A DNA stretch of 64,000 nt, from positions 1 through 64,000 of IMG/VR virus record IMGVR_UViG_3300046648_000213. One strand, 5' to 3'. Made by a program: the position numbers and the translations under genes. This document shows positions 1-13,847 of the stretch, one piece after another (the first letter of the stretch is position 1; each line of letters begins with the position of its first letter). The DNA comes from a virus. The notes under the pieces are model-generated. The model was not told where the DNA came from. It made no database searches and saw only the letters and a list, made by a program, of their open reading frames with translations.

Positions 1-62
1 AGAACGGCAACATCGAGCCTGCCGGTAAGATCGGCCGACTCACTTTCTGGAGATGGAAAAAT

Positions 63-187
63 GAAGTAAATCGAACTGGACTCAGTTGAACTGAACCACT
101 ATCATCTCAACCCGGTTGTTATCAACCGAACTGAACTGAAGCGAAGTTAAATAAAATCAAATGAACGCCAACGAACTCAACCGAATC
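63..187. repeat. 5-bp-periodic degenerate array, (G/C)AACT units; candidate centromere
   Basis: In-phase pentamers GAAGT AAATC GAACT GGACT CAGTT GAACT GAACC ... CAACC GAACT GAACT; same style as the array upstream of parA. Confidence 0.6.
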
Positions 188-1438
188 TTCCTGACGCTCG
201 CCGACACCAGCAAGCCGAAACAGAAGCAGCTGCTGCTCGAGACGTGCTTCGACTCTGACGTTTTCCAGCGCGTGCTGCGCGCCGCGCTCGACCCGTTCGT
301 CACGTATGGCATGACCGCCCTGCCCGCTTCGCAGCCGCAGGTCGAGCTCCGCGAGCACCTCGACGCCGAGTTCTGGTCCCTGCTCGAGCGACTTGCCAAG
401 CGGGAGATCACCGGCAACCACGCCAAGTTCGAAGTGGCGACGGCCATGTCGAAGTACACGTCCGACGTTTGCGACATCCTCCTGCGCATCGTCACGAAGG
501 ACCTGCGCTGCGGCGTCACGGCGACGCTCGTGAACAAGGTGTGGCCGAAGCTGATCCCCGAATACTCATGCATGCTGGCGAAGGACTACGACGCCGCCAA
601 GCAATCCTTCCCCTGCTGGTGGGAGCCTAAGCTGGACGGCTTTCGCGTCAATGTCCATGTGGACACTGACAACGGCACCGTCGACTTCGTGACGCGCAGC
701 GGCCTCTCCTATGGCGAGACGCTGAACCATCTGAAGGATTACGTTCTCGAGGCATGCGAGCAGTTCGCCATTCACCACGGCAAGCCGTTCTCGCGACTTG
801 TCCTTGATGCTGAAGCGATCAGCGGCTCGTTCGCCGAGACGTCTAGCTCCCTGCGCAAGAAGAGCAAGGTCGCGACCGATGCCTGGCTGAACCTGTTCGA
901 CGTTGTGACGAAGGAAGAATTCGACGCTGGGAAAAGCACGAACGAGTACGAAGTCCGCCGCCAAATGCTTCTGGACATCCTCGCCGTCTCCAACCCGGAC
1001 GGCGCGCTGCGCCTCTCCCGCGCTACCCTCGCCCACTCGCACGCCGATCTCGACGCCGCGTACGAATTCTGCCGCGATCGCGGAGACGAGGGGATCATGG
1101 TCAAGGATTGCGGCCACCTGTACGAGACGAAGCGCAGCGCCGCATGGCGCAAGCGCAAACCGGAGGACTCGCGTGAGTTCATGGTGGTCGGCTCCTTCGA
1201 GGGAGAAGGCAAGTACTTCGGCATGCTCGGCGGCCTGACGGTCGACGTCGACGGCGTTTCGGTGAACGTCGGCACCGGCCTCACGGACAAGCAGCGCGCC
1301 GATCTCTGGCCGGTCCGCTTCGACCTTCCCGGCCGACTTGTCGAAGTCGAGTACATGGAGAAGACGCCGGACGGCAGCCTGCGTCACCCTCGCCTGAAGC
1401 GCTTCCGCGACACGATCGAGGCGGGCGTGAAAGAATAA
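161..1438 (+). CDS. lig: ATP-dependent DNA ligase
   Basis: Motif I EPKLDG, LDAE, EGIMVK, WRKRKP; OB-fold end GSLRHPRL. Confidence 0.95.
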   Translation: MNANELNRIFLTLADTSKPKQKQLLLETCFDSDVFQRVLRAALDPFVTYGMTALPASQPQVELREHLDAEFWSLLERLAKREITGNHAKFEVATAMSKYTSDVCDILLRIVTKDLRCGVTATLVNKVWPKLIPEYSCMLAKDYDAAKQSFPCWWEPKLDGFRVNVHVDTDNGTVDFVTRSGLSYGETLNHLKDYVLEACEQFAIHHGKPFSRLVLDAEAISGSFAETSSSLRKKSKVATDAWLNLFDVVTKEEFDAGKSTNEYEVRRQMLLDILAVSNPDGALRLSRATLAHSHADLDAAYEFCRDRGDEGIMVKDCGHLYETKRSAAWRKRKPEDSREFMVVGSFEGEGKYFGMLGGLTVDVDGVSVNVGTGLTDKQRADLWPVRFDLPGRLVEVEYMEKTPDGSLRHPRLKRFRDTIEAGVKE

Positions 1439-1555
1439 CGATCAACGGACGACGGCGAGCGGTGCGCGCGGCACCGGCCCGGACGAGCACGCCTAACCGG
1501 TTTGGGCATAGCAGCAGTCTGGAAAAGGGCCGAGGGTGAAAATCCCCACGTTGTC

Positions 1556-1705
1556 CACCCAATTCAACTGAGTTGAGTCGATATGGACTGTGTTCGATGG
1601 AACACGGTCCATTTCGTTTGCGTCGATTGAAATAATTTGAATCGATGGCCACTCAATTTATACTTACTCAACCCGTTTGAACTGAACTCATCTGGAGTCA
1701 ATTGA
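1556..1705. repeat. 5-bp-periodic array in the parA promoter (centromere/operator-like)
   Basis: AATTC AACTG AGTTG AGTCG ... ACTGA ACTCA ...; contains TCAACTGAGTTGA; lies directly upstream of parA. Confidence 0.65.
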
Positions 1706-2359
1706 ATGACGACAATCGCATTCGTATCAGGGAAGGGCGGCGTCGGCAAAACGACGTGGGCGTTTGACAACGCCGTGCAGCGCGCGCTCGCCGGCCGCGA
1801 CGTACTCGTCATCGACGCCGATCCCGAGCGCATCATGGCGATCGCGAACGCGCGTCGCGACAAGATCGAGGGCGTGCCGCACCTCACCTGCGTTTGCCTG
1901 TACGGCGACGAGATCACGACCGAAGTCCCGAAGCTAGTGAGGAAATACGACGACATCATCATCGACACGCCGGGGCACGACGCGCCCGAGTCGCGTAGCG
2001 CGATGGTCGTCGCGAAGAAGGTCATCACGCCCGCACAGACGAGCCAGTTCGATCTCGACGCCTACGCGAAGATCGACAAACTGGTGAAGCTGGCGCGCGG
2101 CTTCAATCCGAAGCTGGAAGCACTCGCACTGGTGAACCGCGCGTCGACGAACGTGCGCAAGGCCGACGCCGACGAGGCGCTGACCCTCATGAAGACGCTC
2201 CAGCAGTACCGTCCGATGGAATCGATCATGCGCGAGCGCGACGTGTTCAAGCGGATCGCTAAGGAGAACCTTGCCGTGTGTGAGTTGAAGCTGCGCAGCG
2301 ACAGCGACAAGTCGGGGCTCGCCGAGTCGAAGGCACTTTACGAGGAGATTTGGGCATGA
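1706..2359 (+). CDS. parA: ParA-family partition ATPase (short, type Ib-like)
   Basis: Deviant Walker A GKGGVGKTT, IDADP, IIIDTPG; no N-terminal HTH. Confidence 0.93.
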   Translation: MTTIAFVSGKGGVGKTTWAFDNAVQRALAGRDVLVIDADPERIMAIANARRDKIEGVPHLTCVCLYGDEITTEVPKLVRKYDDIIIDTPGHDAPESRSAMVVAKKVITPAQTSQFDLDAYAKIDKLVKLARGFNPKLEALALVNRASTNVRKADADEALTLMKTLQQYRPMESIMRERDVFKRIAKENLAVCELKLRSDSDKSGLAESKALYEEIWA

Positions 2360-2679
2360 ATGCCGCTAAGAAAGGATTCGCGACCGACGCGTCGTCGTTC
2401 ATCGCTGACGCCGGCCGCCGGCCGAACGTGGAAGAGCCGGTGAAGCCCGCGCGCACGGCGCGCAAGACCGCGCCGGCGCCGGCCGCCGACGAGCCCTATC
2501 CGTGGATCGCCGCGAACGAGCGCGTGCCGAAGCACTTCGGCCTGCGCATGCCGGAGCCCGAGCACGAGAAGCTGAAGTGGATCGGGGAGCGCATCCCCGG
2601 CTCCATGCACGACTTCGCGCTGAAGGCCGTCACCGAGGCGATCGCCGCGAAGCTAAAGGAGCTCGGCATCGAGGGCTAG
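2356..2679 (+). CDS. Putative ribbon-helix-helix centromere-binding partner (ParG-like)
   Basis: ATGA-coupled to parA; flexible N-terminus, then beta-strand KHFGLRM and two helices. Confidence 0.7.
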   Translation: MNAAKKGFATDASSFIADAGRRPNVEEPVKPARTARKTAPAPAADEPYPWIAANERVPKHFGLRMPEPEHEKLKWIGERIPGSMHDFALKAVTEAIAAKLKELGIEG

Positions 2680-3071
2680 AGCTTCAGGTGCCGCAGGCCG
2701 ATGTAGAGACTGCGGCGCACCAGCTTCAGAACAGGGGAGATTCTGCCCGCCTTGGGCAGTCCCGCGTAGGCCCTTGCCATCTGCGCCTCTCGGCGCTTCG
2801 TGACAAGGTACGGTTGGACCTCCTCCAGCACCTGCGCGGCGTCCGCGCCGCACGCGCTCCAGACGAACACGCGTTTGTCGTCCTTCTTCCGCGTCTCCGA
2901 ACGCAACTGCCCGCAGCCGAAGATCGCCTGCAGCTTCTGCACCGTCACTTCACTGGTCATCGCGACGCGCACCAGCAGCGAATAGCTCGTGTGCGTGATG
3001 CGCACGGTGATGTAGCCTTCGCCGTCGATGATGCCTGCCGCCCACGCGTGCTCGCTCAAAAGTGCGCCCAT
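2676..3071 (-). CDS. Free-standing single-motif LAGLIDADG homing endonuclease (alternative TTG start 3059)
   Basis: WAAGIIDGEGYI motif, LQAIFGCG, VQPYLVTKR. Confidence 0.8.
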   Translation of the reverse strand: MGALLSEHAWAAGIIDGEGYITVRITHTSYSLLVRVAMTSEVTVQKLQAIFGCGQLRSETRKKDDKRVFVWSACGADAAQVLEEVQPYLVTKRREAQMARAYAGLPKAGRISPVLKLVRRSLYIGLRHLKL

Positions 3072-3649
3072 GCGCCCACCCCGACGAATGCGTCCGGCCG
3101 CTTCCAGTTCATCGGCTCGTCGACATATCCGACGAGGCCCACATGCACAGCTTTGACCTGGAGGAGATCGGCGCGCGCCTCGATGTGGAGCACCGGCGTG
3201 ACCGAGCGCGTCGTGTAGCCGGTCGCGACCATGATGTCGTAGCCGCGCTGCGCGGCGAACCACGGAAGGGCAAGGCGGGTGTCCATTGTCGTGACCTCGC
3301 CGGTCTTCTGGTCGACGACCGTCGACACCTCGTGCGGGTGTGAGTCGGCGACCACCTGCGACTGCGCCACCACGAACTTGTCCGAGTCCTTCTTCACCGC
3401 GTCAGGCAAGTGCAGCTGCTTCTTCACGCTCTGCGCGTAGACCTGCACCTTCGGCGGGGCGATCGTCTCGCTCGCAGCCATCGCGACGGCGGGCGTCGCC
3501 GCCTCCGGCACATCGACCGGCGCGACAATGGACGCCGACATCTGCGGCTGATGGTACGAGTCCCACACCGTCTTCCCTGCGCCCCACACAATCACGATCG
3601 CGGCGAGTGCCATGAGCACGTCGAACGCAATGTCCAGAATCCGTTTCAT
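3056..3649 (-). CDS. Lysis-cassette membrane protein, spanin-like
   Basis: N-terminal TM helix, Pro/Ala linker, C-terminal amphipathic beta-strands ending FVGVGAWAHF; in the Rz position. Confidence 0.55.
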   Translation of the reverse strand: MKRILDIAFDVLMALAAIVIVWGAGKTVWDSYHQPQMSASIVAPVDVPEAATPAVAMAASETIAPPKVQVYAQSVKKQLHLPDAVKKDSDKFVVAQSQVVADSHPHEVSTVVDQKTGEVTTMDTRLALPWFAAQRGYDIMVATGYTTRSVTPVLHIEARADLLQVKAVHVGLVGYVDEPMNWKRPDAFVGVGAWAHF

Positions 3650-3696
3650 CTAGGTCCCCATGTGAACGGGGCCGGTCAGTGCCGGCCCCTTATCAA

Positions 3697-4080
3697 TTAC
3701 TGCGCGACCGCGCCGGCCGGCGGCGCTGCCGCAGGCGCAGCCGTTGCATCGGGCGCGGAAGGGGCAGCCTTCACCTCGGCCTCGACGGCGGTGATGACGT
3801 TGTTCACGACCGCTGCGGCGGGGGCGGGCAGCACGTCGTTGATCGCGGTCGTGACGACCGGACCGACCGCATCGGCGATCGCGGCCGACAGCTTCACGCC
3901 GTTCTTCGTCTCGTCGTAGACGATCAGCGCGGCGGTCAGCGCGGAGACGATCAGGTCCATCACCGTCAGCGCTGTGTGCGAGTCGACCTTCACGCCGAAG
4001 TACGCGGCGCCGGCGACTATGCCGGCGAGAGTGGTCGGTTGCTTCAGGGCATTGCCGACTGCTTGCAGCAGTTCTTTCAT
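3697..4080 (-). CDS. Putative holin/antiholin (2 TM helices, Ala/Pro tail)
   Basis: Two hydrophobic segments; directly after the endolysin. Confidence 0.55.
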   Translation of the reverse strand: MKELLQAVGNALKQPTTLAGIVAGAAYFGVKVDSHTALTVMDLIVSALTAALIVYDETKNGVKLSAAIADAVGPVVTTAINDVLPAPAAAVVNNVITAVEAEVKAAPSAPDATAAPAAAPPAGAVAQ

Positions 4081-4096
4081 CTTCTTCTCCAGTGGT

Positions 4097-4636
4097 TTAG
4101 ACGCCGCACTCGCGGCGCAGGTGCTCGCAACGGTTCATCCAACCGTTGTAGAACTTCTTCTGCGTGGGGTCGTTCTCGACGATCTGCTCGTAGAACTGCT
4201 CACGCTGGTTGATGTAACCCGCGATGGTGTCCTTCGTGCGCGAGGTGTTCGCGGCGTGCGCAGTCATCACGCCAGGCACGCCATCGGCCTTGATCTTCAG
4301 GGCAAGCTGGAGGAAGCGCACCGCGCGTGCGGGGTTGTGCTGGACCGCGCCGTCGAAGACGACCATCGCGAGGTCATTGGATTGGAAGCCGGGGCAGCCG
4401 GCCGGCGCGTAGAACATCGTGTAGTAGATGTCCTGCATCTCGTCGTCGCTCATCTGCGACACGGGGCGCTTCGGCAGGTTGCACTTCAGGCGGTAGGCGT
4501 CGTACGTCAGCTGCGTGACGCCCTTGTAGGTGAGGCCGCCGCGATCGCCGGGGACGTTCGCGAGGCCGCCTTCTTCGCCGAGCACGCACTTGAGGGCGTA
4601 CTGGAACTTGGTATCAACCGAATGGTCTGTTGCCAT
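4097..4636 (-). CDS. Endolysin, GH108 family with C-terminal peptidoglycan-binding domain
   Basis: EGGLANVPGDRGGLTYKGVTQ, VFDGAVQH, FYNGWMNR. Confidence 0.92.
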   Translation of the reverse strand: MATDHSVDTKFQYALKCVLGEEGGLANVPGDRGGLTYKGVTQLTYDAYRLKCNLPKRPVSQMSDDEMQDIYYTMFYAPAGCPGFQSNDLAMVVFDGAVQHNPARAVRFLQLALKIKADGVPGVMTAHAANTSRTKDTIAGYINQREQFYEQIVENDPTQKKFYNGWMNRCEHLRRECGV

Positions 4637-4677
4637 TTTCGTTCGGCGGCTTTAGCCGCTCTCTCTTTTTGGCAGCC

Positions 4678-5001
4678 TTAGAAGGCTTGCTCGATTTTGA
4701 TTTGCAGGTGACCGTCGTTCGGAACAGAGAGCTTCTCACCACCGGCGGTCGTTACCAACCAGTGCCCGTGATAGTCGCCGCTCTCTGCCGTGTCGCGCTC
4801 GGACCACGGGTAGCTTACCTTGCCCGCCGCTGCGTCCGCAACCGTGGCGTTCCCGCCGACCACGCGCGACGTGTTCACGCGGCGCATGAAGAACTGCACG
4901 GTACAGTCGTCGAGCTTGATCGCCTGGCCGTTGCTGTCGGTGAGCGTGGACGACATGATGGGCAGCGTGTCGCCCTGACGCAGCGTGAAGTCATAGATCA
5001 T
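4678..5001 (-). CDS. BppU-like Ig-fold structural protein
   Basis: FTLRQGDT...GKVSYPW...DTAESGDY...PNDG pattern. Confidence 0.65.
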   Translation of the reverse strand: MIYDFTLRQGDTLPIMSSTLTDSNGQAIKLDDCTVQFFMRRVNTSRVVGGNATVADAAAGKVSYPWSERDTAESGDYHGHWLVTTAGGEKLSVPNDGHLQIKIEQAF

Positions 5002-8000
5002 CGAAGTCTCCTGCTGATGGTTGTCGAGTTGTTGATCTGAACGCGCGAGCGGCTCGAGCTCACGCTCGCGGTGTTGGCCGAAGGCGGCAGGGCCGCGTCG
5101 TTAGAGGAGGGCGGCACCTGCGCGGCGTTGGACGACTTGTCCTGCGCCGCACGCGCGGCGTCGTATGGTTGCTGTGAGACAAGTGTCGAGCCATCGGTGC
5201 GGGCGCTCACCGGCTTGCCGGTCAGCTTGATCGCACCGCGCCAACCCGGCACATAGATCGCATCTCCATCGTTGAGCGGCACGAAGATGAGCGGCGACGC
5301 GCCGGAGCTCGTGGCCGGCACAAACAGGTCCGCGCTGAGGTCGAGCGACGGCGCGCGCACCGTGAGCCCGCGGCTGGAGAACGCCGGCTGCATCACTGCC
5401 TCGTCGACGTCGATCGCCGGTGCCACAATGGACTGCGCGGCCGAGGCGAAGCGCGGCGCTGGCATCGAGCTCGAGGTGTCGAGCGTCGCGACCTTCGCTG
5501 GCGCGGCGAGGCCGGTGAGCGCAGGACCGAACGCGGCCGGCGCAACATCGAGTGCCGGAACGCTCAGCGTCGAAGGTGCGATCGTCGAGATCGACGGCGT
5601 GAAGAAGTCGGTCGTCAAGGCAAGTGTTTGAGCCGCCACCTTCGCCACCGACGCCTGCGATGGTTGGTACACCGTAGCGTCGGTGTTCAGTACGCCTACC
5701 GAGACGCTGTTGCTCACCGGGCGGACGGACGGAGCCGGGAAAGTGGCGCTCGAGCTCAGTGTTGCCACTGAAATAGGCACCATTCCAGATGGTGAAAAAA
5801 TCGGCGCAAATGCCTGATAAATAGGCAGCAGGAGAGGCGCTATAACCGCTTCGGGAGCCTCTCCCAATACCAAACTGAGGACCTCCGCGCTCGAATCGAA
5901 TAGCGGGGCCGTAATCGATTTTGCCCCTGCCGAGACGCTGATCGAGGTGAGCGAAACGTTCGTATCGAGCAGCGGCGCAACTAACATTCCGCCGCGGGCG
6001 GCCCACACAGGATCGAGCAGCGCCGGAGCGACATCGAGCGTCGGCGCGGCCACCGCGCGCGCGCCGATGCTGAACGTGGAAGCGGGCAGGTCGGCTGCGG
6101 TGTCCATTGCCGGCAAGTGCAGCGCGATCGCGGCCGGCGCCAGCGCGGGCATGCCGAGATCAGCCGCGATGTCGATGGTCGGCGCAGTGTCCAATTGGAC
6201 ACCGGCACCGACGCTAGGCGTGAAGAGTGCAGCGGGCGCGTCGATCGTCTGAGCGGCGAGCGTGGCAGCGATCGGCGCGAGGGCAGGGGCCGCGAGTTGC
6301 TCGCTCGAATCGAGCAGCGCGAGCGCAACGCGCACGGCGGGCGTGGCCGTGGCCGGCGCGTAAACGGCAGGCACTGCGTCGAGCGCGGCGGGGACCCATG
6401 CCTGCGCGCGAGGGGAGATCACCGGGTTGAAGACGCCGGCCGCTGCGTCGAGCAGCGGCATGCTGAGTTGTGCAGCGCCGATAGTTAGTTGCGCCGGGGC
6501 CTGACTGTCGTCGAGCACCAGCGTCGTCGGACGCAACACGTCCGCGAACGTCGCGCGCGCCGTACTCACAGCTTGCCCTTGCGCAGCGAGTGCGATCACC
6601 GTGGCAAGGTCCGCTGTGGCCATCGCCCGCGCAGCAGCTGTGCCGCCGAGCGGGATCGCAGTGTGGAGGTCGGCCTGCGCCGCCGCGCTCGCCGCGCCCG
6701 CGCCGGCCAGCGTTACTGCCGTGCTGAGCGCGCCGCTCGCCGACGCCGAGACGACGCCGCTGCCGTACAGCAGCGTGCCGGTCTTCAGGTCTGCGCTCGA
6801 GCTCGCGCTCGCCGCGCCCGCGCCGGCCAATGCGATCGCCGTGCTGAGCGAGCCGCTCGCCGCGCTCACGCCGCTCGCCGTGCCTGAGAACTGGACTGCC
6901 GTGCTGAGGTCGGCGCTCGAGCTCGAGCGACACACGGCGCTGCCCGCAAGCACAATGGACGTCGACAGGTCGCCGGCCGACGCCGGCTGCACATGCGCAG
7001 ATGCGGCAAGGTTGATCGCCGTGCTGATGCCGGCCGTCGCCGATGAGGCCACGGTGCCCGCACCGGCCAGCGTCTTTTGAGTGGCGAGTGCAGCCGTCGC
7101 CGTGCACACGGCCACCGCGCTCGCTGCGAGCCGCTTCTGCGTCGAGAGCGTCGCAGTGCCGGTCGCGACGCACGATCCGGTCGACGCGGCGAAGTTCGGG
7201 CCTGTCGCTGGCTGCGTGATCGTGTACGTGCGCGTCTCGCCCGCTGTCCAGGCTGCGACGTTCGTCTGCGCATCGACCTGCGTCCACGTCTTGCCGCCGT
7301 CGCTCGACTGTTCGAACGTCCAGCTTTTCAGCATCGCGTTCAGGTACGAGGTCTGGACTCCGAGCGTATAGCTCTTCAGCTGCGTGTTCGGATAGACGTA
7401 GGCGTACGCGGCAAGCACGCCGGTCTTTGTCTGCCAGCCGGTCGTGACCGAGCCATCGCGCAGATAGTCCGCGGTGTTGTTGCCGTCGTCGAGGTCTGTG
7501 CCGAAGCCATAGCCGCTGAGCACCACGCCGGTCGTGTCGGTGACGTCGAGCGAGCCGAGCGCGATGTAGTTCTGGCTCGCCGAGTTCTGGACGGCCGTCA
7601 CGTGCAGGCGGTACTGGTACTTGCCGAAGGTGATCGTCTGACTCACCTTCCAGCAGTACTTGTTGTAGTCGTACGTGTAGAGGTCGGTGAACGTCGTGCC
7701 GTCGTCCGACCATTGCAGCCGGAACTTGCAGGGCAACTCGTCGGGCCACTGGCTATAGGACGAGATCGCGACGCTCGTGATCGCGCGCGTGACGCTCGCG
7801 CCGAAGTCGTACTGCCACCAACCGCTCGTGGCCGAGTACTCCCATATGTTCGACGTGCTCGCAACGGAGCCGTCGCACGCGCCCGCCGCGACCCGCCCGC
7901 TATACGAGCCGGCTGCGGACGGCGTGCCGCCGGTGAGGACGTTCGTGCTCGAGCCGTCCTCATACATCGCGACCTCAGCCAGCAACATGTACGGCGTCGT

Positions 8001-8060
8001 TGCTTGAATGGTCGATTTGGTCGAATCAATCTGAATTCGCCAATAGCGATGTCCGGCCAT
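4998..8060 (-). CDS. Large virion appendage protein: two F5/8 (discoidin)-like domains plus about 20-aa repeats
   Basis: HRYWRI, FRLQWSDDG, WTFEQSSDGG motifs; repeats LSTAIxLAGxG; Pro-rich periodic C-terminal half. Confidence 0.6.
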   Translation of the reverse strand: MAGHRYWRIQIDSTKSTIQATTPYMLLAEVAMYEDGSSTNVLTGGTPSAAGSYSGRVAAGACDGSVASTSNIWEYSATSGWWQYDFGASVTRAITSVAISSYSQWPDELPCKFRLQWSDDGTTFTDLYTYDYNKYCWKVSQTITFGKYQYRLHVTAVQNSASQNYIALGSLDVTDTTGVVLSGYGFGTDLDDGNNTADYLRDGSVTTGWQTKTGVLAAYAYVYPNTQLKSYTLGVQTSYLNAMLKSWTFEQSSDGGKTWTQVDAQTNVAAWTAGETRTYTITQPATGPNFAASTGSCVATGTATLSTQKRLAASAVAVCTATAALATQKTLAGAGTVASSATAGISTAINLAASAHVQPASAGDLSTSIVLAGSAVCRSSSSADLSTAVQFSGTASGVSAASGSLSTAIALAGAGAASASSSADLKTGTLLYGSGVVSASASGALSTAVTLAGAGAASAAAQADLHTAIPLGGTAAARAMATADLATVIALAAQGQAVSTARATFADVLRPTTLVLDDSQAPAQLTIGAAQLSMPLLDAAAGVFNPVISPRAQAWVPAALDAVPAVYAPATATPAVRVALALLDSSEQLAAPALAPIAATLAAQTIDAPAALFTPSVGAGVQLDTAPTIDIAADLGMPALAPAAIALHLPAMDTAADLPASTFSIGARAVAAPTLDVAPALLDPVWAARGGMLVAPLLDTNVSLTSISVSAGAKSITAPLFDSSAEVLSLVLGEAPEAVIAPLLLPIYQAFAPIFSPSGMVPISVATLSSSATFPAPSVRPVSNSVSVGVLNTDATVYQPSQASVAKVAAQTLALTTDFFTPSISTIAPSTLSVPALDVAPAAFGPALTGLAAPAKVATLDTSSSMPAPRFASAAQSIVAPAIDVDEAVMQPAFSSRGLTVRAPSLDLSADLFVPATSSGASPLIFVPLNDGDAIYVPGWRGAIKLTGKPVSARTDGSTLVSQQPYDAARAAQDKSSNAAQVPPSSNDAALPPSANTASVSSSRSRVQINNSTTISRRLR

Positions 8061-8071
8061 CTAACCCCCGA

Positions 8072-8512
8072 TCAGTTGTCGATCTGGATCGACAGTGCGG
8101 CAGCAGGGAACGACGGCGCAGGGTCGCCGTTGTTCACGGTCTTCGCGTTCGTGAGCGCGCCGTAGAACAGCAGGTTGCCGCCGGTCTGCGCGTCGAGGAT
8201 GCCCCACGCGACGATGGACCCCCAATTGGCGGTCGGCGTCGGAAAGGTCACCGCGCCGTTGTTCGACGTGGTGCCGCTCGACCCGCTCGATGCGGCGGTC
8301 GTGCCCGCGCCTTGCGTGCCTGCCCAATTGGCAAGTGCTCCCGCCACCGCGACGCGCGCGTATGCGCCGCCCGACACTTCCGTGCCGCCGCCGGCGTCGG
8401 CCGGCGAAGCGGTGTAGAGCGCGACATAGACGTTCGACGGAGGCGTGTACGCTTGCCCGCGCAGCACGCAGTCGACCAGCTTGTTCTCGAGGTAGTCCGA
8501 CATTGCGGCCAT
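8072..8512 (-). CDS. Phage structural/fibre protein
   Basis: MSDYLENKL...VYVALYTASP...EVSGGAYAR...GGNLLFYG, a pattern common in phage structural modules. Confidence 0.65.
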   Translation of the reverse strand: MAAMSDYLENKLVDCVLRGQAYTPPSNVYVALYTASPADAGGGTEVSGGAYARVAVAGALANWAGTQGAGTTAASSGSSGTTSNNGAVTFPTPTANWGSIVAWGILDAQTGGNLLFYGALTNAKTVNNGDPAPSFPAAALSIQIDN

Positions 8513-8523
8513 GATCTACCTCC

Positions 8524-8958
8524 TTACCAGCGCAGAATGCCGGAGGCATTCCACTGCAGGTCGACTTCACCGCCGTTCGTCACGAGGTCTGCCGGATCGA
8601 GATAGGCGATCAGCAGGCTGTCGTTGTCGGAGGTCTTCTCCTGAATCAGGACGACCGCGGCGATCGTGCCCGCGTTGATGCCAGGCCACGCGAGGTTGTT
8701 CGCGGTGAAGACGGCCTTGTGGTTCGTGCTGTCGACGCTCACCGACTTGCCGGAGAGCGTCTGACGGCCTGACTGGTTGAAGCCGGCCACGTAGCCGGTG
8801 CCCGACAGTTCGGCCGCGTTCGCCGCCGACACGAACTGATCGCTCGCGGAGGGCGAGTAGCTCGGGCTGACCAGCATGGCCTTGATGGTTGAGCTCGTGA
8901 GGGACAAGTTGCCTTGCAGCAGCTGTGCCTTCGCGTTGTCGTAAAGCAGCGATGCCAT
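8524..8958 (-). CDS. Phage structural protein
   Basis: IKAMLV...ELSGTGYVAG...LIAYLD...TNGGEVDLQWNASGI pattern. Confidence 0.6.
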   Translation of the reverse strand: MASLLYDNAKAQLLQGNLSLTSSTIKAMLVSPSYSPSASDQFVSAANAAELSGTGYVAGFNQSGRQTLSGKSVSVDSTNHKAVFTANNLAWPGINAGTIAAVVLIQEKTSDNDSLLIAYLDPADLVTNGGEVDLQWNASGILRW

Positions 8959-8964
8959 GAGGAT

Positions 8965-9342
8965 TTACTCCTTCTTCTCGTTTTCTTCGTGGGGGATTTC
9001 AGCGTGGAGCTCGAGCTCGCCGTCCTTGCGCCCGACTTTCAGCGAGATGCCGCGCTCCTTGATGAGCTTGAGGATGCCTTCGGCGCCAGCAATGGACAGC
9101 GCGCATGCGATGCCGCACACCGCTATCGGCGGCAGGTTCGGGAACCACACCAGCAGACCGTAGGCGCTCATGCCAAGGCCGCCGCCGACGACGGCCTTGC
9201 CTACGATCTTCTTCCAAGTGAGGGGGTCATCGGACAGAAGCATCTGTCCGAAGCTGACGGCGACGGCAAGGGCTGCCGGCGCGTAGAAAGGGATATTTTT
9301 CAGCCCCTCGGTGTACTGGCTCGGGTCGTGGTCCGGCGTCAT
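8965..9342 (-). CDS. Holin, P2 gpY-like family
   Basis: 3 TM segments; DPLTWKKIVGKAVVGG...FPNLPPIAVCGIACALSIAG resembles P2 holin; charged C-terminus. Confidence 0.75.
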   Translation of the reverse strand: MTPDHDPSQYTEGLKNIPFYAPAALAVAVSFGQMLLSDDPLTWKKIVGKAVVGGGLGMSAYGLLVWFPNLPPIAVCGIACALSIAGAEGILKLIKERGISLKVGRKDGELELHAEIPHEENEKKE

Positions 9343-9407
9343 TAGCACCCTCCGGGGCGTCTTTTTGTTTCCCCGGAGTTTACAGGAACCCGATCTCATG
9401 AACCACA

Positions 9408-10841
9408 TCAGATCGGCATTAACGCCTCGCACGCGACACCGTATAGGCGCACAGTTACCGACTGCGCCAGCGCACAATTTCCGACCCCTGCGTACGAATA
9501 AAGCGGCGTGGCGGCCGGCGGCAGGTCCACGTTCACCATCTGGTTGTCGAAGATCAGCGCGCCGCTGTTCAGGTCCTTCAGCGTGACGTACGCCTGCGTC
9601 GCGCCGGGAGCCATCGTGATCTTCACGCGGTACGTCGTCACCGTGTTGAGTGCGCCGCTGCCGCCCGCAATCGTGCCGCTCGCCGTGCCGTTGCCGACGA
9701 TGATCTGCAGCGGATCGGTCGCCGCGTTCGACGCGTTCCAACCCACGCCGATGCCGATGTCCGTTGCCGCGAAGCTGCCGTAGGTCTGCGAGCGGCTCGC
9801 GCTCACGCCAAAGAAGCCGCAGCCGCCGGCCACGAAATCGAAGCCGAACAGCGCCTCGAATACGAAGCCGCCGAGCGCGCCGGTGCCGTGCTTCACGACC
9901 GGCTTAGCCGACGTGTTGCCGGCCGCCGAGTAGGTCGTCGCCGCGCTCACGAACTGGCTGTACGGGTAGTTCGACTTGAAGTCGGTGCCGCTGGCCGCGA
10001 TGTCCGTGTAGGTCGCCGTGCCGATCGTGTGGTAATCGTTGATCGACGAGCCCGCGTTGGAGTTCGAGTCGACGTACCAGCGGTAGCCGGCGAAGATGCG
10101 GTTGCGCTGGAGGTTCTTCCACTTGCCGCCAGAATAGACGAGCTCGTCGCCTTCCTTCGGCGTCGCGATGGTGGCATCAGTGAGTCCGGCAAGGGTTGAC
10201 GAGCCGCCGTTTCCGCCTGCCCCCGGCGTCGACGGAACCCACTTCCCGCCCTGCGAGGTCAGCACCTGCCCATCGGCCGCGCCAGCTGCTGCAACGTCGC
10301 CAAGGTCCTCGAGGTTCTTCGGCACTGCCGGAACGTCGGTCAGGTCCTTGTAGGAGCCGCTGACCGCGATCTGCTTCAGCTGCGTGTATGCCTGATAGGC
10401 TGCCGCCGGCATGAAGCCTGACGTGGTGGACGTCGCGTCGGGGTGAGCTTGGTTGCCGGCCGCGCCGACGTGACTCGCCGGGGCCGCGCCGAGCGCAGCA
10501 AGCGATAAGTCGGGGCGGCCGGTCAGGTCGCTATAGACGTTCGTCGTCGCGGCCTTCCCCAATCCCGTGATGGTGTTGGCGCTCTGCGTGCCGGTATGCG
10601 TCGCCCGGTCGCGCAGCGACGCGTCGGACGAGTTCGCCGTCGCGGCGTTCGCTATGCCGTCCAGCTTCTGCTTGTCGGTCATGCTCATCAGACCGGCAAC
10701 GGTCTCCGTCGCGTTTCCGATCCAGTTCTTTATCATCGCGATCGTCGCGCGGTAGTTCACTCCGCCCTTAGCGACAGGGAACGATTCGTTCCCATCCATC
10801 CCGTTCAGCAGGTCGAGTTCTGATATTTTTTTGCCCGCCAT
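9408..10841 (-). CDS. Tail fibre protein
   Basis: N-terminal KKISEL; AGLMS..DKQKLDGI; SGSYKDLTD; LEDLGDV/DGQVL fibre motifs. Confidence 0.75.
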   Translation of the reverse strand: MAGKKISELDLLNGMDGNESFPVAKGGVNYRATIAMIKNWIGNATETVAGLMSMTDKQKLDGIANAATANSSDASLRDRATHTGTQSANTITGLGKAATTNVYSDLTGRPDLSLAALGAAPASHVGAAGNQAHPDATSTTSGFMPAAAYQAYTQLKQIAVSGSYKDLTDVPAVPKNLEDLGDVAAAGAADGQVLTSQGGKWVPSTPGAGGNGGSSTLAGLTDATIATPKEGDELVYSGGKWKNLQRNRIFAGYRWYVDSNSNAGSSINDYHTIGTATYTDIAASGTDFKSNYPYSQFVSAATTYSAAGNTSAKPVVKHGTGALGGFVFEALFGFDFVAGGCGFFGVSASRSQTYGSFAATDIGIGVGWNASNAATDPLQIIVGNGTASGTIAGGSGALNTVTTYRVKITMAPGATQAYVTLKDLNSGALIFDNQMVNVDLPPAATPLYSYAGVGNCALAQSVTVRLYGVACEALMPI

Positions 10842-10865
10842 ACGCCTCTCCGATTTATTTTTGTT

Positions 10866-13847
10866 TTAGTACTCGGTCAAGATGAACTTCGTCGCGTCCG
10901 CTTCAAGGTCGATCTCGTAGTCGTCCTCTTGAGTGATCGGAACCAGCGCGTTGGTCGTCATGGGCGCATTGTAGAGGAGGTCCGTACCGTCCTCCAGCAG
11001 CACCTCATCACCGTTCTCCGCCTCGACGAAGTACAGGTCCACCGGCGTCTGCGCCGCGCCGAGCAGCTTCCAGTTGCGATACCCGATGTACAGGCCGAAC
11101 GCGCGAATGATCTCCCCGGCCCAAAAGCCGTAGAACATGTTGCCGCCGACCCACGGCGAGAAGCTGCCGCTCATGTGCGCGTCTTCATCGTACGCGCGCA
11201 CGTAGGTGCGCTCGAACTCGATCATGCAGCCTTCGATGATCGTTTCGCAGTCGGCCTGCCGCGAGCAGCCGTTCATCGCCACCAGCACCGCCCCGCCCAA
11301 CCAGTGCGCCGTCATGTGCCCTGTGTCGTCCGGATTCGACTTCTCGGGGTCCGGGTCCCAACCGTCGTTATAGGGCACGCCGGTCGAAGGGAACACCGTC
11401 GGCGTGTAGTTGTCATGCGTGCGCATGAAGTCCGCGATATAGGCGATGTAATTCTCGACCACCGTCCGCAGCTTGGCCGGCACCGGCTGACCGGCTGTGA
11501 CAAGTGCTTCCCACAGCCTGCAGGCCGAATAGAACGCGCGCGAGAAGTAGCCGCCCCACGGCTCCTGCGTGCCGTACTCGACGTCGACGAACGTGTCGGC
11601 CTTGCCATACTGCACGTTGTCGTAGCGCGGCCACACGTACACCGGCGACATCGGCCCGACGATTCCATGCGCTGCCGTATAGGCTTGCTGCGCATCGTAG
11701 AAATAGTCGATGACGTTGTTCATGTAGTCGGTGTAGCCACCCATCTGCCACACGATCGGAATCTGGTATCCGGTGTACGGCGTGCTGCGCCAGTACTCCC
11801 GCAGGCCCTTCTTGCGCGAGTAGTTCGTGTCGAACGGGACAAGTCCCGGCGAGTAGCGCGGGATCAGCGGTTGCGTGTTCATCACCTCAATGTCGCCGAT
11901 GTAGGCAGCGAACGCCTCGTGCACCTGCGTAACCATCTTGAAGTGCGACATGAAGCGCGTGCCGCTGTACATCGGCGGCACGTCGTTGAAGCAGTAGAAC
12001 TCGCCCCAACACGGCGCGCTCGATCCGGACGGCGAACCGACCGTGATCTGCGTCAGCGCGTTGTGCACCGCCGGCGCCGAGGGCCGCGTTCCGGTGTTCG
12101 TCTGATACGTCGACAGCGTGAACATGCTCCAGTCGAGCGGGCACGTGTACCAGTCGGTGACGAAGGGCAGGGTGTATTCCCACGACCAACCGTTCGCGTC
12201 CTTAATGGACACTGCCAGCGGACCGGGGATGCCCTGCTGCTGCCGGTACGTGATCGACTTGAGCGGGCGCGTCGTCGGCGTCGAGCTCCAGAAGCCGAGC
12301 ACGCATCCAGACGAGCCGTCAGGAATATAGACCGTGCCGGTGAAGTCGTTCCGGTTGGGGTCGCCGAAGAGCCCCCATTGCAGGTTGACGGCCGACGACA
12401 CGGCGTTGCCGTAGGGCACGAACGACTTGCCGTCGAGCATCACATACTCGGTTCCGGAAGCGTCGGCGTCCATGATGAAGTTGCGCAGGGCAAGAGTCTG
12501 CTCGATCACTCCCTTGGCCGTCGTCGTCCACCACGGCACCGGCGTGCGCCATACGGTCTTAGGCGCGTCGAAGTCGATCGTGTCCCCGGTCGTGATGAAG
12601 ACGTTGATGTGCGCTTCGTTATCTAGCCCGGTCGAGAACCACCAGTCGCCGCGGATATAGGACCACTCGTTCACCTTGTTGATGAGCGCACTCTGCTCGA
12701 TCGCCACCTGCGAATCATCTTCGTCGAAGAGCTCTTCGGTCTTCGATATGTAGATGTAGCCGTTCGGCGCGCGCGTGATGCTCGCCTGCGCGTTGTGGCA
12801 GTAGTTCCAACCGAACGAGATGCCTTCTGTGTACGGCGTCTGCGCATCCTTCGTGTAGCGGAACAGCAGCGTCTGCTCGCCGAGATTCACCGCGTTCACG
12901 AGCGTGAACATCGAGCTCTCATGCGCGCGCAGATACTTCACGTCCTTCGTGATGTCGAAAAGCATCCAGGCGACTTCACAGAACCACTGCTCCGCGTCTT
13001 CCGCGTTACCGTACTCGGCCGGATCGACGTGCTGCCACATCGGCCAACCTTCGAACGGCTGATTGCGCCCGATGCTGAAACCGCTGCGCGTGCCGAACGC
13101 GATGTTGAGCGTGCCGTTGAAGGTGTCGTATGGCGCGGCGAGCTTGATCGTGCCGATCGGCGTGCCGGCCGCGACCGGCGTGTCGAGCGTGTCGCCGTCG
13201 AGCGTCATGTACTGGTTGCCGTCGAACACGAACCACTCGACCGGATAAATCTTCCCGGAGGGCGTGCCGGTCACCGAGTTCCAGTTCATCTCCCCTTCGT
13301 ACACGTTCCAGATACGCGCGAGCTTCTCGCCGTAGTACGGATAGCCACGCGGCACATATCCGTAACCGTTCACGAACTGCACCGGGAAGTCCCACATGCC
13401 GGACTGCGACGGCGAGCCGTAGTTCACCGGCCCGATCGTCTCGAAGGGCTGCTTGCCGTTGACTGCCCAATGGCAGTGCCATTCCTGCGGTGTCGGCGGG
13501 ATCGGCAAGTTGGGGTAGAAGACGCTGAGGTACGCGTCGAAGTACAGCTTCGCCTTGTCGAGGAAGTACGTGTCGCCGGTCGCCTTATACGCGTAGACGT
13601 ACCCGAGAATCAGGAGCGACTGCCCCTCCGTCGTCGCAGTGCCGTTCGGCATGTAGCCCGACAGCGCGATTTCGAAGTGCATGTTGTTGAGGATGATGTT
13701 TCGGGTGTTCATGCAGAACACCCCGGTCCCATCGCTCGCCGCGTCGCCGATGTGCCGCTGGATGAAGTTGTCCAGGCCCCTAAGCATACTCAGCGCGTTC
13801 TCGGCGCGAGTGTCGAACCCCATTGAGCGAACAGGCGTGATTTCCAT
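10866..13847 (-). CDS. Tail-associated glycoside hydrolase-like protein (GH8-like motifs)
   Basis: TTEGQSLL resembles GH8 SEGQ; NAEDAE resembles GH8 ATDGD; aromatic-rich; lies between fibre genes. Confidence 0.5.
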   Translation of the reverse strand: MEITPVRSMGFDTRAENALSMLRGLDNFIQRHIGDAASDGTGVFCMNTRNIILNNMHFEIALSGYMPNGTATTEGQSLLILGYVYAYKATGDTYFLDKAKLYFDAYLSVFYPNLPIPPTPQEWHCHWAVNGKQPFETIGPVNYGSPSQSGMWDFPVQFVNGYGYVPRGYPYYGEKLARIWNVYEGEMNWNSVTGTPSGKIYPVEWFVFDGNQYMTLDGDTLDTPVAAGTPIGTIKLAAPYDTFNGTLNIAFGTRSGFSIGRNQPFEGWPMWQHVDPAEYGNAEDAEQWFCEVAWMLFDITKDVKYLRAHESSMFTLVNAVNLGEQTLLFRYTKDAQTPYTEGISFGWNYCHNAQASITRAPNGYIYISKTEELFDEDDSQVAIEQSALINKVNEWSYIRGDWWFSTGLDNEAHINVFITTGDTIDFDAPKTVWRTPVPWWTTTAKGVIEQTLALRNFIMDADASGTEYVMLDGKSFVPYGNAVSSAVNLQWGLFGDPNRNDFTGTVYIPDGSSGCVLGFWSSTPTTRPLKSITYRQQQGIPGPLAVSIKDANGWSWEYTLPFVTDWYTCPLDWSMFTLSTYQTNTGTRPSAPAVHNALTQITVGSPSGSSAPCWGEFYCFNDVPPMYSGTRFMSHFKMVTQVHEAFAAYIGDIEVMNTQPLIPRYSPGLVPFDTNYSRKKGLREYWRSTPYTGYQIPIVWQMGGYTDYMNNVIDYFYDAQQAYTAAHGIVGPMSPVYVWPRYDNVQYGKADTFVDVEYGTQEPWGGYFSRAFYSACRLWEALVTAGQPVPAKLRTVVENYIAYIADFMRTHDNYTPTVFPSTGVPYNDGWDPDPEKSNPDDTGHMTAHWLGGAVLVAMNGCSRQADCETIIEGCMIEFERTYVRAYDEDAHMSGSFSPWVGGNMFYGFWAGEIIRAFGLYIGYRNWKLLGAAQTPVDLYFVEAENGDEVLLEDGTDLLYNAPMTTNALVPITQEDDYEIDLEADATKFILTEY

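Follow-up and report, generated by a model that had tools for sequence, protein, structure and literature searches.

At 3056..3649 on the (-) strand of the first 64,000 bases of virus record IMGVR_UViG_3300046648_000213 (this stretch is called the window) lies a gene for a 197-aa protein that is read here as a single-chain, spanin-like envelope tether with an outer-membrane anchor of the outer membrane protein (OMP) type. From the sequence evidence, a probability of roughly 0.45 is assigned to this reading. The source virus record is complete at 83,209 bp. The gene, taken from the list of open reading frames (ORFs), has an ATG start and a stop codon at 3056-3058, and its product belongs to a new, unnamed, virus-associated family. 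Outer-membrane disruption is the last, required step of phage lysis. A role of the family in that step appears to be the most economical reading because its genes follow endolysins of at least four unrelated families, occupy a spanin slot and come without a lipoprotein spanin that could be found. The analysis followed up an earlier note, made from the letters of the window alone, which had proposed a new single-component spanin with an inner-membrane helix and a C-terminal beta-barrel signal.

Architecture of the protein and its conservation across the family

An AlphaFold2 model of the full-length protein, built on a 138-row family alignment, reached a mean predicted local distance difference test score (pLDDT) of 89.7 and a predicted template modelling score (pTM) of 0.67; a second model of residues 60-197 alone displayed the same fold (pLDDT 95.7, pTM 0.74). 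The N-terminal hydrophobic segment (residues 7-25; 3575..3631, (-)) falls within a predicted helix spanning residues 2-33 and is read as an inner-membrane signal-anchor helix. It is followed by a low-complexity tether rich in Pro, Ala and Val (residues 26-67; 3449..3574, (-)), recognized by its composition and by low pLDDT, which drops below 50 at residues 37-41 and has block means of 58-60 over residues 31-50. A conserved, putatively periplasmic module comes next (residues 68-131; 3257..3448, (-)), with two short helices, three short strands and a PLPW motif; its near-invariant residues in the family columns are K76, L81, V93, T116, G117, P129 and W130. The remainder of the protein is a candidate outer-membrane sheet of four long, amphipathic, antiparallel strands predicted at pLDDT >90 (residues 132-197; 3059..3256, (-)), ending in the beta-signal-like motif FVGVGAWAHF (residues 188-197; 3059..3088, (-)).

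Seven strands were predicted in total, three short (91-99, 106-113 and 119-125) and four long (132-145, 152-165, 168-179 and 186-195). Coiled-coil helices were not predicted, and past residue 60 the model contains just two helices of 5-6 residues each. The only hydrophobic helix is the N-terminal one, the C-terminus being a beta strand with an aromatic last residue, and Cys is absent from the whole window protein. The transmembrane helix, the linker, the amphipathic strands (given as about four) and the terminal FVGVGAWAHF of the earlier note were thus all recovered, with the three shorter strands (91-125) preceding the four long ones. Both monomer models present the four strands as an open sheet that is unable to close by itself. 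Homo-trimer models of residues 60-197 scored 0.20 and 0.27, below the mark of 0.42, and these values speak neither for nor against an oligomer.

The C-terminus is OMP-like in its pattern of residues across the family. Among 153 representatives, the last residue is W in 110, F in 28 and Y in one (139/153 aromatic), and an aromatic residue is present among the final three positions in 150. The 139 proteins ending in W, F or Y carry G at position -8 in 135 cases, G at -6 in 110, Y at -3 in 61 and R or K at -2 in 96. A strict motif, G..[hydrophobic].[FWY]-COOH, fits 105 of the 153 members; of the 495 six-frame ORFs that the 83-kb genome has at 80 aa or longer, 2 carry it, and the target gene is one of these. 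The end of the window protein, GVGAWAHF, also fits the OMP beta-signal consensus zeta-x-G-x-x-[aromatic/hydrophobic]-x-[aromatic/hydrophobic] as it is worded in PMC10945584.

Outer-membrane character is likewise suggested by the arrangement of the sheet. In the columns of the 138-row alignment, the last four strands present a hydrophobic face, and their other face is Gly-rich with conserved charges (R155 in 116/138, K166 in 134/138 and D177 in 118/138). Insertions and deletions occur in the sheet only at residues 147-148 and 179-183, and the connection between residues 165 and 168 is a two-residue turn, K166-A167. If sides are assigned by the rule for OMP C-termini, the two variable loops would face outward and the turn would be periplasmic. 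With that putative assignment, the asymmetries of loop and turn and of the two faces are textbook for outer-membrane strands.

At the other end of the protein, the uncharged N-terminal segment has a median length of 18 aa over the 148 representatives that reach 165 aa or more, with Gly, Ala, Ser and Thr making up one third of it. The net flank charge is +1.03 on its N side versus +0.19 on its C side; the N flank is the more positive in 83 of the 148, the C flank in 26, and the two are equal in 39. From the end of the segment to the first conserved column, the tether has a median of 32 aa (5-95% range 28-42) and contains 15.7% P and 14.7% A, while the distance from the end of the transmembrane segment to W130 of PLPW has a median of 94 residues (5-95% range 89-105). 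Such tight control of length in a low-complexity linker argues for a spacer function rather than for a signal peptide followed by a dispensable leader. Periplasmic Cys is absent in 120 of the 153 members. A lipobox-like L/V-x-[GAS]-C string was observed in the N-terminal segment of 8 of 152 representatives (including P0102, P0089 and P0044), mostly in mid-helix; in P0102, polar residues come after the Cys, as they would in a genuine lipoprotein signal, so that a lipid anchor may replace the N-terminal helix in a few members.

Structural comparison added limited information. Foldseek searches of both models against the PDB returned nothing at E<=0.001, and against BFVD the best match had E 1e-3 with TM<=0.35, to uncharacterised phage proteins. 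The VIA structure search aligned residues ~129-197 only, with no match over residues 68-131, and its scores here fall in the range that the tool terms common. It returned PagL (Z 5.0, root-mean-square deviation (rmsd) 3.0 Å over 68 residues), the OprF N-domain (Z 4.9, 2.8 Å over 65), NspA (Z 4.6, 2.2 Å over 65), OmpA (Z 4.6, 2.4 Å over 60), the anchors of AtaA (Z 5.1, 3.6 Å over 57) and Hia (Z 4.6, 3.5 Å over 57), a designed transmembrane barrel (Z 4.9-5.1, 2.6 Å over 62-63) and protomers of gasdermin, MACPF and secretin type (Z 4.5-5.6, 2.9-8.2 Å over 60-71). In length and curvature, the modelled C-terminal sheet is like a piece of a membrane barrel, and the scores say no more than that. For the analogy with trimeric autotransporters drawn in the earlier note, the structural likeness is weak (Z 4.6-5.1 to AtaA and Hia). 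A divergent barrel of the Lom/Ail type was rejected, given just four long strands and no Pfam match.

The family is large. When 1.84 billion representatives of clusters at 50% identity were searched exhaustively with phmmer, 330 passed E<=1e-3, of which 149 also passed E<=1e-10, and almost all measure 175-210 aa; a word-indexed search had given three relatives only. The nearest ESM-Atlas clusters are annotated 'hypothetical protein' and are 78-92% viral. Pfam gave nothing better than E 0.031 for the window protein (DctQ, under its cut-off) and only single-member, chance-level matches among the 138 aligned members (best E 0.0013), and NCBIfam likewise gave only chance-level matches among those 138. 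YadA_anchor, Ail_Lom, OMP_b-brl and the other OMP families of Pfam matched 0 of the 138 members at E<=5. In PHROGs, the window protein had weak rows only (E 0.35 and 0.36) and none at E<=0.001, and one of the 138 members matched an unnamed PHROG. The family profile searched against PDB sequences reached a best E of 0.29. An identity with DUF6808, a lead that arose from 15-24% of members in neighbouring ESM Atlas clusters and from two BFVD rows, was dropped: a search with PF20647 was empty for the phage genome at E<=10, and 0 of 138 members matched it at E<=5.

Searches among cultured phages were negative. Megablast of window positions 1-12000 gave no match among GenBank phages. Two cultured phages listed as 'spanin-less' in 2018 were scanned with the family hidden Markov model (HMM), and no member was found in Vibrio phage SHOU24 (first 50,000 of 77,837 bases) or in Rhodobacter phage RcapMu (whole genome). 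RcapMu29, encoded by the gene after the RcapMu endolysin, is helical and unrelated. The large terminase of the window phage (38461-40158, (-)) shows ~31% identity to those of 77-85-kb Vibrio phages of the SHOU24 group. The family is thus large, yet is seen essentially only in uncultured viral sequence.

Position of the family gene in lysis cassettes

The earlier note had placed the gene in the Rz position, and this placement holds: the target follows, on the same strand, an endolysin gene with Glyco_hydro_108 and PG_binding_3 domains (4097..4636, (-); Pfam 1.3e-17 and 2.8e-10; phrog_315 endolysin, 1.2e-38) and a small membrane ORF. Related loci were drawn from viral and genome collections (18) and from metagenomes (7). 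An endolysin domain was found at most two genes upstream, on the same strand, in 12 of the 14 loci tested with Pfam. The domain is SLT in L002 and L003, Phage_lysozyme in L004, L009, L010, L012, L014 and L015, Amidase_2 in L005, L017 and L019, and GH108 in L018, as in the window itself; upstream of the family gene in L006, a Methylovorus menthalis prophage, there is only DUF5675, and in L011 no Pfam match. Holin_2-3 genes lie 5' of the endolysin in L002 and L003. Outside the 14-locus count, the ORFs of L008, L013, L016 and L020 are by eye the same as those of L009, L012, L005 and L018. L027 and L028 are probably the same contigs as L011 and L002, and L026 repeats the L009 type. L007 was set aside as doubtful (a 36-residue match at 2e-4 in an archaeal metagenome-assembled genome); scans of genome contigs had given 0 relatives in one case and 2 in another, L007 among them.

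Two loci have a Mu-like order. In L009 it runs GemA, Mor (tested in this locus only), endolysin, family gene, TraR-type zinc finger, DUF1804 and a 537-aa ORF without a Pfam match that is taken as the large terminase by position only. In L003 the order is GemA, endolysin, family gene, TraR-type zinc finger, Gp27 and large terminase (Terminase_6N). The spanins of phage Mu, gp23 and gp23.1, come after the SAR (signal-anchor-release) endolysin gp22 (PMC9239132). By analogy of gene order, the family gene fills the gp23/gp23.1 spanin slot in Mu-like phages.

Some of these cassettes have unusual members. A papain-family cysteine protease (L002:5052-5792; Peptidase_C1, 1.6e-15) lies between the SLT endolysin and the family gene, which is unusual in a lysis cassette. 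The DUF5675 protein of the Methylovorus prophage (L006:5463-5996; Pfam 3.1e-31) is encoded directly 5' of the family gene, after holin-like ORFs, and DUF5675-like genes also precede the family gene, by eye, in L029-L032 (L031:2818-3474, L029:7-222, L030:21-272). From this position, DUF5675 may be an unrecognised endolysin family; its H...T-x-G-C-I-L motif may resemble that of YkuD-type L,D-peptidases, which are peptidoglycan enzymes.

No convincing lipoprotein partner was identified. The whole 83,209-bp genome was scanned for lipoboxes in six frames; the strict rule gave 0 matches, and the relaxed rule gave 49 strings, of which 0 had a credible signal peptide and 0 lay in or beside the target gene. 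The earlier note had seen no lipobox-bearing Rz1 ORF nested in or next to the gene, an observation that now extends to the entire genome, and these scans also yielded no convincing candidate for a lipoprotein spanin located elsewhere, the finding that the note had named as speaking against its proposal. By the usual criteria, the window phage has neither an o-spanin nor a u-spanin. Among the 18 related loci, scanned from 3 kb upstream to 1.5 kb downstream, no lipoprotein ORF was embedded in or overlapped the family gene. Separate lipoprotein genes were observed near it in two lineages only, L012/13 and L018/20, in each case 1-3 kb upstream: one of 147 aa at L012/L013:4888-5331, and two of 65 and 225 aa at L018:3169-3366 and 3679-4356, also present in L020. 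Neither their position nor their length is spanin-like.

Between endolysin and target in the window lies an ORF of 127 aa (3697..4080, (-)) from the ORF list; two of its segments are weakly hydrophobic, and its C-terminal tail is rich in Ala and Pro. The ORF had no significant Pfam or PHROG match, and from its position it is possibly a membrane protein of holin or antiholin type. Small membrane ORFs of 75-93 aa likewise lie between endolysin and family gene in L005, L015, L017 and L019. The phage's 125-aa holin is encoded at 8965..9342 (-) (phrog_175 holin, 5.6e-20; phrog_126, 1.7e-6). Four structural-type genes are inserted between holin and endolysin (window 4678-9342, (-)), so that the lysis cassette is split; they comprise two of ~145 aa (phrog_644; phrog_240 'head protein'), one of 1020 aa that is repeat-rich and a BppU_N-like one of 107 aa.

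No sigma-70-like promoter or intrinsic terminator was called on the (-) strand over 2400-5200, and the endolysin, the 127-aa ORF and the target gene therefore probably share one transcript. A G+C-rich stem-loop at 3660-3690 (8-bp stem, 6-nt loop, no T-run), between the 127-aa ORF and the target start, adjoins a GGGGA Shine-Dalgarno-like site on its downstream side. It was not called by the terminator scan and may be a processing or translational-coupling element. On the other side of the target is a free-standing homing-endonuclease ORF of LAGLIDADG/HNH-like type (2676..3071, (-); ~131 aa with the MGALL... start; phrog_5046 HNH endonuclease, 5.3e-19; a weak Pfam match to LAGLIDADG_1, 0.0022). 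This ORF shares 16 bases with the 3' end of the target gene and forms the boundary of the leftward late/lysis block.

Proposed envelope tethering weighed against other explanations

In the favoured reading, the N-terminal hydrophobic helix would stay uncleaved and sit in the inner membrane as an N-in signal anchor. The Pro/Ala tether of ~30-40 residues and the conserved module of ~60 residues would pass through the peptidoglycan, and the C-terminal four-stranded sheet with its beta-signal would go to the machinery for beta-barrel assembly (BAM) and be assembled into the outer membrane. A homo-oligomeric barrel is probable there because four strands cannot close alone. One polypeptide would then join both membranes, in the manner of T1 gp11 but in reversed orientation and with an OMP-type instead of a lipid anchor. 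Once the wall had been removed by the endolysin, the tethers would cluster or collapse, and the outer membrane would be destroyed by fusion or tearing. More tentatively, the family may constitute a third architectural class of spanin, a unimolecular tether whose outer end is a BAM-assembled homo-oligomeric beta-barrel rather than a lipid. The envelope-spanning, barrel-anchored lysis protein of the earlier note is favoured by the conserved beta-signal, the constrained tether, the indels in the presumed outward loops, the endolysin and Mu slots and the missing lipoprotein partner, while its oligomeric barrel, uncleaved helix and lysis role remain proposals.

Several observations weigh against the tether. 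The uncharged segment, at a median of 18 residues, also fits the h and c regions of a cleavable signal, and a protein cleaved there would not bridge the two membranes. By estimate, a 94-residue tether would have to be mostly stretched out to cross a periplasm of ~20 nm or more, and no precedent is known for BAM assembling a protein that is still attached to the inner membrane. The ends of lysis cassettes also house lysogenic-conversion genes such as lambda bor. All VIA matches are weak (Z <=5.8), and the soluble sheets of DesVI, Vps39 and WD40 score alike. Distribution is a further point: none of 50,697 GenBank phage records was matched in tblastn by the window protein, P0041 or P0007, and an HMM scan of 400 bacterial genomes from the class of the Methylovorus prophage host (one further genome was left unscored) detected the family in 1 of 400, the Methylovorus seed genome.

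There is a real but minor chance that the protein is instead a released outer-membrane pore-former, its segment being cleaved or of signal-anchor-release type, which would contribute four strands per protomer to a multi-subunit barrel and perforate the outer membrane rather than bridge the envelope. Secretins, gasdermins and TolC are models for protomers that each give four strands. The beta-signal and amphipathic strands fit such a protein equally well, as does the gene's place near SAR and canonical endolysins. With a median of 18 residues, one third of them Gly/Ala/Ser/Thr, the hydrophobic segment is of no more than moderate length, and gasdermin, MACPF and secretin protomers are among the VIA matches (Z 4.5-5.6), although the gasdermin matches have an rmsd of 6-7.6 Å. 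A linker kept at 28-42 aa in 90% of members, however, is hard to explain unless it is a tether. By eye, the segment is often followed by an aromatic cluster, as at a helix-membrane interface, rather than by a small-x-small site, and an unregulated outer-membrane pore during late expression would risk premature damage. An accessory envelope moron unrelated to lysis, acting in superinfection exclusion, receptor masking or host fitness like lambda Lom or Bor, is a smaller chance again. The OMP-like features would suit it, the gene stands at the 3' end of the lysis cluster with a homing-endonuclease ORF next to it, and many homologues occur in temperate Mu-like phages and one in the Methylovorus prophage. 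Yet the family gene keeps its place behind endolysins of four families unrelated to one another, and does so in phages of different types, which argues for a functional link to lysis; no promoter or terminator of its own was detected, no other gene for outer-membrane disruption was seen in these phages in the lipoprotein scans, and the examined parts of the window phage showed no Mu-like or prophage features, lysogeny genes not having been searched for.

It is improbable that the protein is an inner-membrane-tethered periplasmic regulator of the holin-endolysin step (an antiholin, a releasin-like factor or an endolysin-binding protein) with a soluble beta domain whose end motif is not used by BAM. 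Lysis cassettes do hold extra membrane-tethered factors, examples being Mu gp25 (PMC9239132) and LambdaSo Lcc6 (10.1101/2024.01.23.576932), and the VIA list contains soluble four-stranded sheets at equal Z. The monomer models are very confident (pLDDT 95.7), as would be expected of such a domain, but at that confidence (pTM 0.74) no second layer is predicted over the uniformly hydrophobic face of the sheet. The terminal aromatic residue in 139/153 with Gly at -6 and -8 is an OMP signature without an obvious role in a soluble domain, and the co-occurrence with SAR and canonical endolysins of four families makes regulation of one enzyme type unlikely. The least probable alternative is that the beta-signal docks, as a hybrid-barrel or unproductive substrate, on strand 1 of host BamA; the outer-membrane anchor would then be BamA itself, acting as a host 'o-spanin', or outer-membrane biogenesis would be poisoned. 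The canonical beta-signal and four strands unable to close a barrel alone are in keeping with this, and BamA inhibitors that use beta-signal mimicry are reported (bioRxiv 10.64898/2026.09.25.754295). Against it, the three further conserved amphipathic strands and the OMP-like asymmetry of loops and turn suggest real membrane integration, and a block of BAM would be slow relative to the timing of lysis.

Comparison with known systems

Several proteins share part of the proposed layout. Phage-encoded eight-stranded OMPs of the lambda Lom/Ail/OmpX type are similar in size to the family, are phage-borne and share a C-terminus of the G-x-G-x-x-Y-R-F/W type, and the last four strands of the target superpose on the C-terminal half of the eight-stranded NspA, OprF-N, PagL and OmpA (Z 4.6-5.0, rmsd 2.2-3.0 Å, 60-68 residues). 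The family differs in having four long strands only, in a 60-residue module and a 30-40-residue tether without counterpart, and in its constant link to endolysin genes. Trimeric autotransporters (Hia, AtaA, YadA) share the four C-terminal amphipathic strands with an aromatic beta-signal and the glycines on the presumed lumen face of the sheet. They carry a lumen-filling helix and a surface passenger, whereas in the family PLPW and short strands precede the sheet and the rest of the protein is predicted on the periplasmic and inner-membrane side. TolC likewise gives four strands per protomer to a multi-subunit outer-membrane barrel. TonB has an N-terminal inner-membrane helix, a Pro-rich linker that spans the periplasm and a small C-terminal domain that pairs strands with barrels. 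Its layout is alike, but its C-terminal domain is soluble and has no terminal beta-signal, and TonB gave no sequence or structural match in any search made here. The disruptin phiKT gp28 is described as a small, cationic, amphipathic protein resembling antimicrobial peptides (bioRxiv 10.1101/515445), unlike the target at 197 aa, beta-rich and membrane-anchored.

A spanin census of 2018 found no recognisable spanin in 91 of 677 phages and left open, outside its criteria, the possibility of an OMP in the role of o-spanin (PMC6139136). No report of a spanin or other outer-membrane disruptor with an OMP-type anchor was found in the literature, where the supplementary tables of PMC6139136 and PMC12596118 could hold candidates. 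The topology was thus foreseen, yet is not reported in the literature searched. If the tether reading is true, the family would explain part of the ~13% of phages of Gram-negative hosts without a findable spanin, and its at least 330 clusters at 50% identity make it a concrete, widespread candidate for 'spanin-less' phages. It would also include the first known protein inserted by BAM while held in the inner membrane, with BAM acting on a tethered client, and would provide both a new class for the annotation of phage lysis genes and a small genetic device with which the outer membrane could be disrupted under control. Should the reading be wrong, what remains is a conserved, unnamed family that belongs to lysis cassettes and is worth naming.

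The two-component spanins Rz/Rz1 (lambda; Mu gp23/gp23.1) share with the family an N-terminal type II anchor, as the topology is read here, and the Mu slot. The periplasmic part of the Rz i-spanin is made of coiled-coil helices, in place of which the family protein has seven strands; Rz/Rz1 also involve an embedded, overlapping or adjacent lipoprotein gene, whereas the family has neither this gene nor a conserved periplasmic Cys.

The u-spanin T1 gp11 is likewise one polypeptide proposed to join inner and outer membranes. Its gene comes directly after holin and endolysin (order holin ST13, endolysin ST12, gp11 ST11), like the target's place in the lysis cassette, and both gp11 and the family are paired with SAR and canonical endolysins. 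The beta-rich periplasmic part of gp11 measures ~85 residues from lipobox Cys to transmembrane domain (TMD), against the family median of 94. U-spanins usually have no periplasmic Cys (PMC6139136), and a Cys-free periplasmic part is shared by most family members. An hhalign comparison of the family alignment with the T1 gp11 sequence alone, rather than a gp11 profile, gave a probability of 0.1% and E 0.44, so that the two show no relationship in sequence. The two also run in opposite directions: in T1 gp11 the TMD is C-terminal and the lipobox Cys N-terminal, whereas in the family the TMD is N-terminal and the C-terminus carries the beta-sheet that would serve as an OMP-type anchor.

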